This document shows, in pieces, positions 1-56,852 of a stretch of DNA of 64,000 nucleotides (its first letter is position 1; every line of letters begins with the position of its first letter). The stretch is from Anolis carolinensis (Eukaryota), in NCBI RefSeq assembly GCF_035594765.1, contig NC_085846.1:20509190-20573189 (forward strand), read 5' to 3'. The notes beneath the pieces are model-generated. The model was not told the origin of the DNA, did no database searches, and saw only the letters and a program-made list of their open reading frames with translations. Position numbers and translations under genes: made by a program.

Positions 1-13
1 ACTATTTAAAACT

Positions 14-1567
14 ATGCATTTGATCCTAAGGGATTTTTGGTGGCCCAAGATCCGCAAGGATGTAGAAAAATATGTCAACACCTGCCCAGTATGCCAGCGC
101 TCCAAGATACGAAGGGAAAAGCCCTCAGGGCTTTTACACCCCCTTCCTACCCCATCTCGCCCATGGGAAATAATTTCCGCGGATTTCATCACTGACCTAC
201 CACCTTCCTGTGGATTCACCACGATCTTAGTGGTGGTGGACCTTTTCACCAAGTTAGCCCATTTCATTCCCTGCGAAGGCCTCCCCACGGCCAAAGAAAC
301 TGCGGATCTATTTCTTCAGCATGTTTTCAGACTACATGGATTGCCCAAGAGTTTAGTCACAGACCGTGGATCTCAATTCACCTCTCGTTTTTGGAAGGCA
401 CTACAAAAACTACTGGGCATAGACTCTCGCTTATCTTCAGCTCATCATCCCCAAACAGATGGGCAAACGGAGCGCACCAATGCCACTTTGGAGCAGTATC
501 TTCGCTGTTATGTAAACTACCAACAGGACAATTGGGCTTCTCTGTTACCACTGTCCGAGTTTGCCTACAATAATGGAGTTCAAGCTTCTACAAAAGAAAC
601 GCCGTTCTTTGCAAACTACGGCTTCCATCCACGTTTCTTTCCCCCTGTCATTGAAACTTCAGAAGTTCCCGCAGCAGAGGATTGGTTGCAGGAACTCACA
701 GCGGTGCAACAACTTTTGCTCCAGCAACTGGACCAAGCCAAAGAGGACTATAAACGCCACGCTGACAAACACCGCCAGCCGGGCCCTGAAATCAAGGTAG
801 GAGATCGGGTTTTTCTGTCCACTCGCTTTCTGCCCTCCCACCGCCCTTGCCGGAAGTTAGATGCCCGTTTCATCGGCCCCTATCCAGTGGTGGCGCAATT
901 AAACCCCGTGACTTTCAAACTCCAACTTCCGCGTTCAATGCGCATCCACCCAGTGTTTCACCGTTCCCTGCTCCTTCCGGCGGATGGTGTGCGTCCTGAT
1001 ACAGACCAACCGGCCCCCCCTCCTGTTTTGATGAATGGGGAGGAGGAGTTCGAGGTTGAGGACATTTTGGATTCTCGCTTTCATCGCCGCCGCCTACAAT
1101 ATCTCATTGACTGGGTGGGTTTTGGGCCTGAGGAACGCTCTTGGGAAGACGCCTCCACAGTCCATGCTCCTGATCTAACCCGTCGCTTTCATCTGACCTA
1201 TCCCACCAAACCGCGACCTCGCGCCTCGGGGAGAGGATCCCAGTTTGGGAGGGGCCCTGAGGAGGGGGATAGTGTGATGAACCATGGGCCTTGTAGTCCT
1301 GCTCAGGACATTGTAATTCCTGATGAAGATGAAAACTTGGGTTTTTTACCTTCCCAGTCTGAACTGGATTCCTCTCAGCCAGATCTTTCCCAGGCAGATC
1401 TGGGAACCTTGCACCTGCAAGAAAGTTGTGCCCCAGAAGTATGTCAAACAACCCCAGAGCCTACTTCTCCCGTGTTCTTGCGCCGGGAGTTTTGTAAACA
1501 ACAGAGAAGTTTGGATTCAGCTTCGCGCAGGAGTGCGAGGATAGCAGCTAAGAATGTTGCCAATTAA
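14..1567 (+). CDS. 3' part of Ty3/Gypsy (chromovirus, sushi-like) pol: integrase + GPY motif + chromodomain; truncated by the window edge
   Basis: C-x2-C of the HHCC finger (CPVC), DDE triad (SADF, VTDRGSQF, GQTER), GPY motif, chromodomain EEFEVEDILDSR..QYLIDWVGF..EERSWE; the ORF continues into the LTR. Confidence 0.95.
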   Translation: MHLILRDFWWPKIRKDVEKYVNTCPVCQRSKIRREKPSGLLHPLPTPSRPWEIISADFITDLPPSCGFTTILVVVDLFTKLAHFIPCEGLPTAKETADLFLQHVFRLHGLPKSLVTDRGSQFTSRFWKALQKLLGIDSRLSSAHHPQTDGQTERTNATLEQYLRCYVNYQQDNWASLLPLSEFAYNNGVQASTKETPFFANYGFHPRFFPPVIETSEVPAAEDWLQELTAVQQLLLQQLDQAKEDYKRHADKHRQPGPEIKVGDRVFLSTRFLPSHRPCRKLDARFIGPYPVVAQLNPVTFKLQLPRSMRIHPVFHRSLLLPADGVRPDTDQPAPPPVLMNGEEEFEVEDILDSRFHRRRLQYLIDWVGFGPEERSWEDASTVHAPDLTRRFHLTYPTKPRPRASGRGSQFGRGPEEGDSVMNHGPCSPAQDIVIPDEDENLGFLPSQSELDSSQPDLSQADLGTLHLQESCAPEVCQTTPEPTSPVFLRREFCKQQRSLDSASRRSARIAAKNVAN

Positions 1568-7197: not shown

Positions 7198-7492
7198 CTA
7201 TATTAGGCAAAGATTCTTTGTGAAGGTTAATTGGTGAAACTTCCATCTTTCAAGTCACCTTGGGCCCCATGTCAAGAGAAAAGTGGAATATGAATTAGTT
7301 ATATGGTGAATAAATTGCCCAAACAAGCTCTTACTTATGAATTATTTGAGACTCTTTTTATGTGGAAGGGGTCCTCTAGTTTTAACTTTTGCATGCCCCC
7401 CATGATTTTAATTGTATTGATATGTTTTACTTAATTTGTTTTTTTGTTTGTGAGCTGCCTGGGATCCTACACTAGGAGAAAGGCAGCATATA

Positions 7493-8454
7493 TGTTGTTA
7501 TGGAATCTTTGAGTAGTGATACTACTAGGAGTACTAGAAGGGGAAGAAATACTACTCGTGAGCAAGACTCTGAGGAGGAGCGACAAAGGAAGCAGATCCG
7601 GAAAATACTTACAGAGCCTACTGATGAGGACTCATTTGAGGGCTTTGAAGGGGATGATGGGGTTGAGAATTAGGAGGATGGGATGACAAGTTCAGAGAAT
7701 GACGTAATGGACTGGACTAAGGTGCGGGACATCTGTGAAGAGCCCATAAGTAGTGACACGTTTGAGAGTTGGCACAGTGGGGATCTGGCTGGGTCTTGGG
7801 GAGTTATGGGTTTGGATAAAAGATGGAAAGATTGGAGGGATCGACAAGGGGTTTCAGCTGAAAGGAGGTCTGGTTGGGCGTTGCCTGATTCCAGTTCTGA
7901 GGAGGAACTGAGGCAAGAGGCTTCAGCTGCTAGCAGGGTGTTGGCTGATTCCAGTTCTGAGGATGATTTGTGAATAAAAGTGGAATTGGGAAATGCGGCC
8001 CTTGCAGTAGGCAAGGTGTTGATGGGTATTCGTGTGACCTTAAGAGCTGTTTGGAAGACTACTGTGGACCTGCCATGCTGCGTTCTACATTTTGGCTCTG
8101 TGTACGACCTGGACTGGATTTTCATGTTTGCTGCCTTCTCCTACTTTGACCCGGATTGGATTCAACGACGACGACATCGTGCTTGACTGACTTTGCCAGA
8201 TGACTTCGGCCCCCTACTGTTAGTCTTTTCCTGCCTGCTGGAGTCCTGCTGTGAATTGGCATGCTTTTCCTGTTGTTTTGCAGGCTTGGAATTTGAACCA
8301 GATTATATTCTGGTTAAATCCGGGTTATTTTCCAGGGCTCGGGTTTTGCTTTGACTGTGCTTTGAGTTTGTTTTTGGGCTCTTTTGTTGTGAACTAATAA
8401 ACTCTACTTTTACTAAAGACTGGTCTGGCGCTTTAAGGGGTCTGTCTTGCAACA
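7493..8454 (+). mobile_element. Solo LTR (962 bp)
   Basis: TGTTG...CAACA termini; 5-bp TSD ATATA (7488-7492 / 8455-8459); AATAAA near 8396. Confidence 0.9.
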
Positions 8455-9989
8455 ATATAAATGCAATCAATCTTTTGCAACCAGGAGAATTGTGTAGTGA
8501 TGAACTATTCTACATTATTCTACTATATTGTCTTACAAACAGATAATTTGCCTTATATTTCATGCCATGTACTGGAAGAAGAGAAAGCATGATGATATTT
8601 GATCATATAAATTTGAACACCATTCCATTGGCCATGTGATCAGGTACTGTACTTTGCTTTTCTTAGAGGCATTTCAACCTACAAATACTAATAATGTCTC
8701 TGAGGATTTTTGTCACTGAAGTTTCCTGGGCTCTCTGGGCTGTTATCTTCAGTAATGCACCCAGAGCAGGCAAGCATAAAATGCCTTTTTTGAAAGAAGC
8801 ACATATACTATTAATCCATACTACTTTTACAGGCGAAGACATGAAGTAGAAGAATGTTCATCATACGACACATGCCTTTAGATGAAGCCTCAGCCAAGAT
8901 ATCATAGAATGATAAGAATGAGAATGCAACAGTGAGAGGTAAACCTCAATTTCATACCCTTCCTCAATTCCAGACCTCTTCTGTAATGTTAGTAAGAAAA
9001 TATCAGAATAGTCCAAAATGCTTTGAATGGTTTAATGTAGTTCTTACTGCTGTCACTGTTGTATGCCTTCAAGTTGTTTCTGAACTATGGCAATTCTAAG
9101 ATGAATCTATCACAGGATATCTTTGACAAGATTTGCTCAGAGATGGTCTGCCATTTCCTTCAATAATACAATATTTGTCAGCAATTATTGTTCTCGCTCT
9201 CTTCCCCCAATCTATCTGTAATATGGAGCAAATACTGGAATGGGGTAATGAAAGCAAAGTTTTCTGACTACATGAAATATGGTATAAAATGTAAACTGTT
9301 GTAACTAGTCAGATGAAATATTTGAACTAAAGATGCTATTAGTTAGTCTTTGACTATTTTTTTAAATTGGGCTGTCTCTATCTTCACTTGGGTAACTAAC
9401 ATTCATACAGAGTAAAATATTGTCATTGATGAGTATAGTAACTGGCTCAATGTATGCTTCTTTCTGTATAGTGTGGAGTCCAGTGAGTGAGACTAATTCT
9501 AGGTGTATTGTACTGAGTCCTGTTGAAATGGCCCAGTAATCAGTACACCTTGTTTAGGGCTATAAAAACATTCAGGATTGCACTGCAGCTGTGTGGATAA
9601 AGTCACTTGTGCACCAGCATTCCCACCTATTCTGCCTGTCTCCCCCTCTATCTGCCTTTCTCCTTCTTGTCTTTCTCACAAACCCTCATATAATATTTTA
9701 TAACTAATGCACATTGGCATGTTGTCTTTTTCTGAACCTCCCATTCCATAACTCAATAGTGTCTTCAGTTTGCACAAACCTATTATATAGCTCTACTGTG
9801 ATAGATATGTTAAGTACTTTAGATAGCATCTAATAATGTCAGAAGAACCAATTCTTTTGTTTGTTTATTTATTGCTAAGCAGTTATTAACTGGAGTGAGA
9901 GAGAATCATTGTTCTACTGCTTATGTAGGATGATCTTTGGAATTTGCCTTGAATGGCAAATTGTCACTATGCTTGCTGCAAGAGTTAGA

Positions 9990-11327: not shown

Positions 11328-11737
11328 ATCTTGAGAGTGTTTATACTGAAGGTTTTCTGAGACCCTGCAGATTGGGCCACTCCGAAATGATGTATCCTCC
11401 ACATGGGTCCTGCCACAACTGCTTGTCTCAATGTGCCTTTTCACATGATCTGAATAGTGCTGAATAGTCATTTTCCAGCACTCCAATTTGCAGTGTCTCA
11501 AACTCATGGCTGATGTGTTGCCTAAAGGTTTTGGGGGCCCATTCCATCACTAATGACTGTAAAACTGAACTCTTAAAATTATTAGATAAGTCTGATTATG
11601 ATCTCATAACTATTTAAAGGATGGCAACATAAAAATGGGATAAACAATGAACAATCTTTATTGTTTCAAAATAAATCTTACTCTAATTTTGCTTTTTTTC
11701 CCCTCTACAGAAGTGCAGTAAAGAACCATAGAAGGAA

Positions 11738-12736
11738 ATGACAAATGCAAGTTCCATTGCAACTTTTCTTCTTCTGGGTTTTTCTGACACTCACGAACAA
11801 AATATTATGTACTTCTTCCTTCTTTTATTGATTTATTTGGTAGTCTTGATGGCAAATTTTCTAATAATGTCAGCTGTTTTCCTGGAACAAAAGCTTCATA
11901 CTCCCATGTACTTTTTCTTGGTTAATTTATCTGTTGTGGACCTTGGTTCTATTTCTGTCACCATTCCCAAAGCAATGATTAATTCTTTCTTGCACACTAG
12001 AGATATTTCATATTCTGGCTGCGTTGTACAAGTATTTTCTTTGTTTTTTTTCTTGATATCTGATTTGTTCCTCCTCACAGGCATGGCATATGATAGATAT
12101 GTTGCCATCTGTGACCCACTGCACTACGAAACTGTGATGAACATAAAAGTTTGCATTCAACTGGCAGCCAGTGCATGGATAGCTGGTCTTCTTTATTCAG
12201 CTTTGCACACTAGTAGCACTTTTGCCATTACATTTTGTTCCAACATCATCAATCAGTTCTTTTGTGAAATCCCACAACTACTGAAAATTTCCTGCGATAA
12301 TATGTATCTCATTGAAGTTGGAGTCATTGTTTTTAGTATATTTATAGTTTTCCCTTGTTTTGGTTTTATAGTTGTTTCATATGTGCAGATTTTCAAGACT
12401 GTGCTACGAATCCCCACTACTCACGGACGAAGCAAGGCCTTCTCAACATGCCTGCCCCATCTTATTGTTGTTTCCTTGTTTATTGGTACTGGAAGCATTG
12501 CCTATCTGAAGCCTGTTTCAGGATCTTCTTCAGAGGTGGATGTGATTGTGACTGTATTATACTCTGTTGTGCCTCCTTTGATGAATCCAATTATTTACAC
12601 TATGAGGAACCGGGACATCAAAAAAGCACTTTGGAAAATGCTTGCATGTGGGATTTCTTCTGGGTATCAAGGAAGTTCTTTTATTTTTACTTTCATGTCT
12701 AGCCTTGTTAGGCCTATTTTTAAAATACATAGTTGA
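11738..12736 (+). CDS. Olfactory receptor (family 14/gamma-like), intact, 332 aa
   Basis: N-glycosylation sequon NAS, LHTPMYFFL, MAYDRYVAIC, FFCE, KAFSTC, PPLMNPIIY; splice acceptor TTTTTTTCCCCTCTACAG ending at 11710. Confidence 0.97.
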   Translation: MTNASSIATFLLLGFSDTHEQNIMYFFLLLLIYLVVLMANFLIMSAVFLEQKLHTPMYFFLVNLSVVDLGSISVTIPKAMINSFLHTRDISYSGCVVQVFSLFFFLISDLFLLTGMAYDRYVAICDPLHYETVMNIKVCIQLAASAWIAGLLYSALHTSSTFAITFCSNIINQFFCEIPQLLKISCDNMYLIEVGVIVFSIFIVFPCFGFIVVSYVQIFKTVLRIPTTHGRSKAFSTCLPHLIVVSLFIGTGSIAYLKPVSGSSSEVDVIVTVLYSVVPPLMNPIIYTMRNRDIKKALWKMLACGISSGYQGSSFIFTFMSSLVRPIFKIHS

Positions 12737-51172: not shown

Positions 51173-51614
51173 TTTCTCTCCATGACTGTACTTGTATACT
51201 ACCCTGTTTCCCCGAAAATAAGACAGGGTCTTATATTAATTTTTGCTCCCAAAGATGCACTAGGTCTTATTTTCAGGGGATGTCTTATTTTTCCATGAAG
51301 AAGAGCTCACATTTATTGTTGAACAACAAAATGAACATTTATTATATATTCTAAAGTAGTTGTCATCACAAACCAGCATAACCAGACAAACTATGAATCC
51401 TATCAAGAATTTCTTGTTACTACCATTATTTACATGTACAACAATGTCAGAACCCTGCTACTAGAGCCTGGATGTGGCTCTGAGTTTCAGGGTCACTGAC
51501 AGTGATAAGACACCTGCGTCCCAGGACTCGGAGGAGAAACGGCTGATGGACTTGGCGGGGAATTTGCGCGGGGTTTTACTGAGCGGGAAGAGACTGTTCA
51601 AATGAGGGGGAGGG

Positions 51615-51655
51615 TATATAAAGGAGGGTTGGCCGGAGCCTCCCATTCTTGGCTT
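51615..51655 (+). promoter_or_regulatory. LTR core promoter: TATA box and initiator
   Basis: TATATAAA at 51615; Inr-like CCATTCT with A at 51645, 30 nt downstream. Confidence 0.8.
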
Positions 51656-51749
51656 TTCTGATGTTCATGTTTCCTACAGTAAAAGTTCCTGGTGATACCA
51701 CAGAGAGTCTCGTGTGTTCATTCAGGAGCGGCTGTGGTGAGCTGACACT

Positions 51750-56412: not shown

Positions 56413-56852
56413 TTGTGTTTAATCTTTTCCTTCCAGGACGAAGGGGAGGAGGACGCCATGTCAGAACCCTGCTACTAGAGCCTGGATGTGGCTCTGAGTT
56501 TCAGGGTCACTGACAGTGATAAGACACCTGCGTCCCAGGACTCGGAGGAGAAACGGCTGATGGACTTGGCGGGGAATTTGCGCGGGGTTTTACTGAGCGG
56601 GAAGAGACTGTTCAAATGAGGGGGAGGGTATATAAAGGAGGGTTGGCCGGAGCCTCCCATTCTTGGCTTTTCTGATGTTCATGTTTCCTACAGTAAAAGT
56701 TCCTGGTGATACCACAGAGAGTCTCGTGTGTTCATTCAGGAGCGGCTGTGGTGAGCTGACACAACAATCTATGGTACCTCTTGCAATTTAGGTTTCACAA
56801 GGTTTCCACACTGATTTCTCTCTATTCTAGTTTCAATGTAGTCATGAATGAT

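Follow-up and report, generated by a model that had tools for sequence, protein, structure and literature searches.

A lizard solo LTR with a conserved U3 frame and TIM-like repeats, a candidate LEDGF/HRP2-binding tail of a retrotransposon integrase

A solo LTR in the Anolis carolinensis genome

The window analysed in this work, a stretch of 64,000 nucleotides of Anolis carolinensis DNA, harbours at positions 7493-8454 of its forward strand a 962-bp LTR with TGTTG...CAACA ends, which is bordered by a direct ATATA repeat, the 5-bp target-site duplication, read in the sequence at 7488-7492 and again at 8455-8459. With TG...CA ends, a single target-site duplication and no internal region, this copy is a solo LTR. 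It belongs to subfamily A of a chromodomain-less Ty3/gypsy clade, whose related families are lettered A to G in what follows, and its closest other copy among the matches listed shows 86% identity over the full length. An olfactory-receptor gene (11732-12736) lies 3.3 kb downstream of the LTR, and three similar stretches are found near 22.2, 41.5 and 50.2 kb, so that the window is likely a receptor cluster; we take the neighbourhood of the LTR, which is a single site, to contain no obvious H3K36me3 domain. Two other segments of the window (51444-51743 and 56458-56757), identical over at least 300 nt and 5,014 nt apart, are possibly the LTRs of a young element.

The initial annotation had read a frame from the second nucleotide of the LTR, and this frame stands as described: it starts at 7494 and spans 160 codons on the forward strand (7494-7973), interrupted once, by a stop at 7671-7673, and terminated at 7971-7973; a TATA-like ATAAAA (7974-7979) comes next. 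It is a homologue of the C-terminal integrase tail of sister families. From 5′ to 3′, the frame encodes a short basic patch (RRGR, 7536-7547), whose R-x-G-x-K-T-x-R positions are invariant among 10 aligned tails, and which is possibly a nuclear-localisation or DNA-contact stretch. A first TIM-like repeat (7596-7646) follows, made of a helix-type IRKIL (7596-7610), an acidic linker with a CK2-type site (7611-7634) and FEGF (7635-7646), with the premature stop of this copy lying 3′ of it. The second TIM-like repeat (7722-7772) is degenerate here and ends in FESW, the equivalent residues being F-x-G-W in other A/B copies and F-x-G-F in family F. The rest of the frame contains a conserved Trp-rich block, W..LD.RW..WR (7797-7841), and closes with two short Ser/acidic repeats (7876-7966) detected as a self-match. 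The ATAAAA lies 30 nt 5′ of the putative transcription start, where R would begin (8004-8014) at the positional and sequence homologue of the 11-nt stretch that, in families C and D, is complementary to the primer site. Finally, an AATAAA at 8396-8401, which is also present in the 3′ ends of other copies, is likely the polyadenylation signal.

Copies and families

In a genome search with the LTR, 40 of 1,835 candidates were scored, and a 21-mer of the commoner 5′ end gave 141 genome occurrences, with no close pair seen among the 100 places listed. Thirty loci were fetched, 22 of them with both LTR ends, and the 5-bp duplication was exact in 16 of these 22, one base off in five and two bases off in one; the fetched copies are solo LTRs. 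Many copies keep the U3 frame open from end to end, and F(E/Q/K)GF is preserved in 23 of the 26 other copies having the 5′ end, so that both the open frame and the FxGF motif singled out in the initial annotation are properties of the family. The stop at 7671, by comparison, occurs in just two of the 23 other readable copies and is not a family trait.

The same frame is kept in subfamily B, with about 70% protein identity to subfamily A. Family F, whose tails contain three TIM-like repeats, comprises at least 150 LTR copies, and one copy is covered by an automatic gene model (L110-L146; P0274, LOC107983448, Anolis carolinensis). A few other copies are annotated, also through automatic gene calling, within uncharacterized Anolis proteins, as could be expected if the solo LTR at 7493-8454 were itself expressed or had been co-opted by the host. 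Such a role is hardly credible for this copy, however, in view of its premature stop, its degenerate repeat 2, the position of the frame upstream of its own start site, and within-family dN/dS values of 0.48-0.69 (A, B and C), as expected after insertion. A protein search found no longer proteins carrying the A-type tail. Outside Anolis, the tail matched two of 150 listed representatives plus four proteins, every named one being from Anolis carolinensis, and the full pattern after GPY/F was present in none of the 125 protein matches, own or other, with a readable end, transposon proteins being poorly covered in both searches. The LTR families described here may already be catalogued in repeat databases.

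TIM-like repeats in the U3-encoded tail

According to the available text of PMC9987994, a TIM joins a helix to an acidic linker 8-16 residues long, optionally with an FxGF, and FxGF is present in every partner known for the TNDs of LEDGF and HRP2. The first repeat of the window, IRKIL-TEPTDEDS-FEGF, combines a helix-type IxxI(L/F), an 8-residue acidic linker and FxGF, and therefore the LEDGF-like FxGF motif initially proposed sits within a full TIM layout, whose best PDB match is also a LEDGF-bound TIM. Either with a 27-row motif alignment or with a 38-mer of family D, the best of 177,635 PDB sequences was 6EMO (LEDGF IBD with JPO2 motif 1), matched over the stretch KEVADIFNAPSDDEEFVGFR along 20 gapless residues with E-values of 0.14 and 0.075, respectively, which are below significance; the likeness is carried by rank and layout, not by the E-value. 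The whole A-type tail gave no match in the PDB, nor did any Pfam family match the tail. Like the TIM/IBM of JPO2 (CDCA7L) in 6EMO, the lizard motif has a helix-type stretch, then an acidic linker that includes a CK2-type site, then FxGF, with the same spacing and the same proline. The TIMs of IWS1, KMT2A and POGZ have also been solved bound to the LEDGF TND (6EMR, 6EMQ and 6EMP), and only 6EMO was matched by the motif. Unlike JPO2, IWS1, KMT2A and POGZ, which are host proteins with measured binding, the carrier would here be the integrase of a mobile element, with a predicted binding.

The number of repeats per tail is two in A/B and G, one in C, D and E, and three in F. Helix anchors of the type I/L-x-x-I/L/V-(L/F/C) are kept in all families as a sequence pattern, the helix itself being predicted, and in A/B the helix ends in L, not F. 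Repeat 2, with its F-x-G-W end in A/B, is lost in C and D; it is S/T-rich, not acidic, and fails FxGF in the window copy. When repeats were anchored on helix and linker alone (165 loci, n=214), the F-x-G-(F/W) end was found in 192 of the 214 anchors and FxGF in 156, although these anchors come from related copies that were retrieved with queries bearing the motif and do not count as independent events. Position by position, F is present in 204 and G in 201, and x corresponds to E (141), V (30), L (20), M (11), K (6) or others. The consensus for CK2 phosphorylation calls for D/E three places after S/T, and D/E occupies that place past the linker S/T in 187 of the 214 anchors. From these features, it seems fairly likely that the tail binds a TND of the LEDGF/HRP2 type.

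Chance, selection and the U3 frame

A bare FxGF is by itself weak evidence, with 23 occurrences in the six frames of the window; among 20,000 residue shuffles of the U3 frame, 59 contain it. The pattern of helix, acidic linker and FxGF, which was built from PMC9987994 after the U3 sequence had been seen, occurs a single time in the window, in the U3 frame, and in 0 of the 20,000 shuffles. The dN/dS comparison across copies suggested with the initial annotation was carried out on 33 copies chosen for their open frame, and it gave a median of 0.24 both between A and B (30 pairs) and between C and D (38 pairs), and 0.24-0.44 in all between-family sets, dS being near saturation in distant pairs. 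Differences between families are concentrated on third codon positions. Moreover, between an A and a B copy there are no indels along the 486 nt of the frame, against 25 in the 450 nt that follow. Indels within the frame in the A-B2 and B-B2 comparisons measure 9 and 6 nt; indel counts for A-C, A-D, B-C and B-D were left unused because the DNA is unalignable at such distance. The most conserved block between A/B and C/D corresponds to codons 41-50 (0.74), that is, the linker and FEG. Altogether, purifying selection has conserved the U3 frame and its motif.

These data also bear on the idea that the motif is a by-product, with an acidic low-complexity tail kept for its charge or for promoter elements of U3, and FEGF arising by chance. 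The frequency of bare FxGF in the window, the DNA-level duties of U3 and the non-significant E-values against the PDB would fit with this idea, which is nevertheless very improbable when confronted with the third-position bias of the differences, the absence of the full pattern from the shuffles, the duplication of the motif unit up to three times with constant spacing, and the variation of x among paralogous repeats while F, G and F persist.

Integrase read-through into the 3′ LTR

Patterns derived from the window's own variant or from a guessed tRNA primer site found no parent element, and none was seen upstream of 13 copies with long open frames and seven subfamily B copies, one of which, L042, was later recognised as containing an inverted integrase piece. 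A BEL/Pao-type RNase H-integrase frame (L040, 8139-9999) close to an A-type solo LTR was also considered as a parent and rejected; the parents found are Ty3/gypsy elements, and the BEL-type frame is merely a neighbour, unrelated to that LTR. A polypurine-tract pattern led to L064, a two-LTR parent of the own lineage with decayed PR, RT and RH, then a GPY/F-bearing integrase, which a short linker joins to the LTR. Its integrase end, used as a query, gave 40 matches, 30 of which were examined: three were assigned to the own lineage from the way their LTRs begin, the A-type label of L068 being based on 10 bases of LTR, and 27 correspond to sister families C, D and E.

The frame from GPY/F to the LTR runs without a stop in 25 of the 30 loci (25 of the 27 from C, D and E), and in 22 of the 30 it reaches FxGF. 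In these sister families, the integrase passes GPY/F and then the polypurine tract, which lies directly 3′ of the integrase, into the LTR frame, the distance from GPY/F to the LTR being about 30 residues. A last pattern search gave 19 places, namely six new F/G-type parents with GPY/F, four of them with read-through, five already-seen loci, and eight corresponding to other families or lacking GPY/F. Elements C and D contain gag and then a pol of about 1,215 codons, the last 138-143 of which lie within the 3′ LTR. The two LTRs of these elements show 97-100% identity, which indicates that the clade has been active recently. The proposal that the integrase of the parent element extends into the 3′ LTR is thus borne out in the sister families, but not directly in the own lineage, whose three parents all have the frame broken on the way from GPY/F to that of the LTR. 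Two of them, of B type, have an integrase frame that stops just inside the LTR, and one of these stops overlaps the initial ATG of the U3 frame. The third has its linker in the phase of the U3 frame and its break further upstream; a family C copy is also broken, by G-run slippage. For subfamilies A and B, read-through is what we infer by analogy, and the U3 frame is very probably the coding tail of an integrase.

Another possibility already raised in the initial annotation is a separate small U3 protein acting in trans, produced by stop-restart at the LTR edge, from a sub-genomic RNA, or through cleavage from the integrase by the protease. The stops of the two B-type parents and an ATG close to where the LTR begins, retained by A, B, C and D, are in line with such a protein. 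In contrast, the stop-free read-through in the sister loci, the lack, in families E, F and G, of any Met preceding the first motif, the phase of the linker in the third own-lineage parent together with a slippage that affects family C too, and the position of the U3 frame upstream of the putative transcription start argue against it. A separate protein is therefore disfavoured and improbable as a general explanation, and possible for subfamily B.

The initial annotation had also drawn a same-phase comparison with position 1273. The element at 1-2.2 kb of the window, with 521 open codons (2-1564), does read in that phase from pol into its own 3′ LTR, but it belongs to a different family, which bears a chromodomain. 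Among the rearranged loci, L107 (1329-4350; G000:C3:67.47 Mb) contains an A-type LTR split by about 2 kb with an inverted integrase end, the tract and 10 LTR bases, and looks like a rearranged or auto-integrated copy. In L064 (6270-7116; G000:C2:34.35 Mb), the U3 of the 5′ LTR has received an in-frame solo LTR from a chromodomain family, resulting in a chimeric frame of 211 codons with both tail types.

Transcription start, self-priming and classification

In five C/D elements, the bases 3′ of the 5′ LTR are complementary to an LTR site located 30-37 nt past the frame end, over 11 nt in four of them and 10 nt in the fifth, and the sole base that differs between C and D in this pairing changes on both sides. 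No such primer site was found in any A/B parent. Self-priming has been described for the Tf1/Sushi group (PMC6317226, available text), and the C/D elements share it. By homology, transcription of the window copy would start at about 8004. The U3 frame would then lie wholly upstream of the start, and so it would be readable from the 3′ LTR of a full-length RNA, not from the transcript of the solo LTR itself; the solo copy at 7493-8454 is likely silent and would make no protein.

Pfam searches on two pol frames of sister families (1214 and 1219 aa) revealed PR, RT, RH, integrase and SH3_Tf2-1. Chromo (PF00385) is absent from the L101, L103 and L064 frames in Pfam, and the same search finds it in L039 and in window 2-1564; by domain, members of this clade are not chromoviruses. 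Their PR-RT-RH-IN order with GPY/F and no env, found in pieces in L064 of the own lineage and by Pfam in C/D, is that of Ty3/gypsy elements. They are not endogenous retroviruses either, as the gap between integrase and LTR leaves no room for env, and self-priming takes the place of a tRNA primer site. A quick tree, built with no outgroup and with crude chromodomain labels, groups eight integrase pieces from A-E, against 61 other rows, into a single clade (SH-aLRT 100) that sits on a long stem amid chromodomain-bearing matches.

Among known systems, the Tf1/Sushi group (V-clade) of chromoviruses, as described in the available text of PMC6317226, shares gag, PR-RT-RH-IN, GPY/F (SH3_Tf2-1), the lack of env, self-priming and a 5-bp duplication with the lizard clade, which differs in having no chromodomain and in its U3-encoded tail of 138-200 residues with one to three TIM-like repeats. 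In group A of the plant CRM elements, the closest analogue, the coding sequence continues into the 3′ LTR, where it specifies the CR motif (PMC3059260, available text), and the gain of this motif has been tied to the loss of the chromodomain (PMC6317226, same proviso). The sister-family coding regions likewise run into the 3′ LTR, so that an LTR-encoded integrase tail has a precedent in CRM elements. On the other hand, CRM group A is a centromere-associated plant clade that uses a tRNA-Met primer, whereas the lizard lineage primes itself and its motif resembles a known class of host ligands.

A possible tether to chromatin

The host possesses a PSIP1 gene with PWWP and IBD, one exon of which matches Anolis PSIP1 records at 100% identity, as well as an HRP2-type exon. 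An intron-less, stop-bearing copy of the PSIP1 C-terminal region (L096; G000:C2:143.72 Mb) is a likely processed pseudogene. The proposed pathway would start with an integrase made with a disordered, U3-encoded C-terminal tail, translated only from the 3′ LTR of the full-length RNA. CK2 would phosphorylate the acidic linker, and the helix-acidic-FxGF repeats would dock on the TND (the integrase-binding domain) of LEDGF/p75 or HRP2. Finally, the PWWP domain of the host factor would keep the integration complex on H3K36me2/3 chromatin, and the tail would stand in for the lost chromodomain. Phosphorylation, binding and tethering are all predicted from the motif alone. The complete reading, an integrase tail whose repeats bind the LEDGF/HRP2 TND and tether the complex to H3K36me2/3 chromatin, seems on balance modestly probable, and the chances that the tail is used for integration tethering at all look about even.

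Counting against these predicted steps, small chromosomes are gene-dense, and fixed copies show no excess on them (15/150, 10/150 and 2/40, versus 15.3% of the genome; p 0.07, 0.002 and 0.08), in a count that is coarse and confounded by post-insertion selection and by the candidate choice of the search; the setting of the window copy close to an olfactory-receptor gene, a single site, also counts against them. This lack of a gene-dense bias would be compatible with a true TND ligand serving another purpose, either binding TFIIS, ELOA, PPP1R10, MED26 or IWS1, or binding LEDGF for nuclear retention, stability or chromatin access without site bias. Several TNDs read TIM helices and acidic linkers (PMC9987994, available text), and the repeats vary in helix and final residue, as though adapted to more than one partner. 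Against this alternative, which is rather unlikely, FxGF is singled out for LEDGF and HRP2 in the same text, and the tail occupies the chromodomain position of relatives, as the CR motif does in CRM elements (PMC3059260, available text).

The tethering model also recalls lentiviruses, whose integrases are tethered by LEDGF/HRP2 in a case of viral mimicry (PMC9987994, available text). The lizard integrase would reach H3K36me2/3 chromatin through that same TND. Lentiviral integrase binds LEDGF through a folded catalytic-core dimer, not through a disordered FxGF motif; unlike lentiviruses, the element described here has no env and would rely on a predicted disordered FxGF motif. More tentatively, and with somewhat less than even chances, a vertebrate lineage may have swapped its histone-reading chromodomain for a multivalent, LTR-encoded motif that binds LEDGF/HRP2, thus reaching the tether of HIV by mimicry instead of a folded interface. 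Chromodomain-bearing neighbours with a different LTR tail would then make U3 a swappable cassette for targeting motifs. If true, a retrotransposon with a host-type TIM would represent a solution independent of lentiviral LEDGF tethering, the plant CR-motif pattern of chromodomain loss and gain of an LTR-encoded tail would gain a vertebrate parallel with a named candidate partner, and a single genome would allow related elements with a chromodomain to be compared with those with a TIM tail. Searches of the open-licence literature turned up no retrotransposon described as carrying a TIM or FxGF motif.

Other LTR-encoded tails

Families bearing a chromodomain also read into their 3′ LTRs, namely those of window 2-1564 (LTR from 1273), L039, L040, L063, L064, L082 and L085. 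Their tails share DE(D/E)EN(L/M/I)GF, which may be a partial FxGF-like site, and most end in RRS(A/L)RI(A/I)A(K/R), a sequence that presumably resembles the arginine-anchor motifs binding the nucleosome acidic patch. A further LTR family (L148, G000:C1:115.08 Mb; L163, C6:54.79 Mb) contains a U3 frame of about 100 codons with an arginine-rich end, RRSQRL(A/T)LKL.
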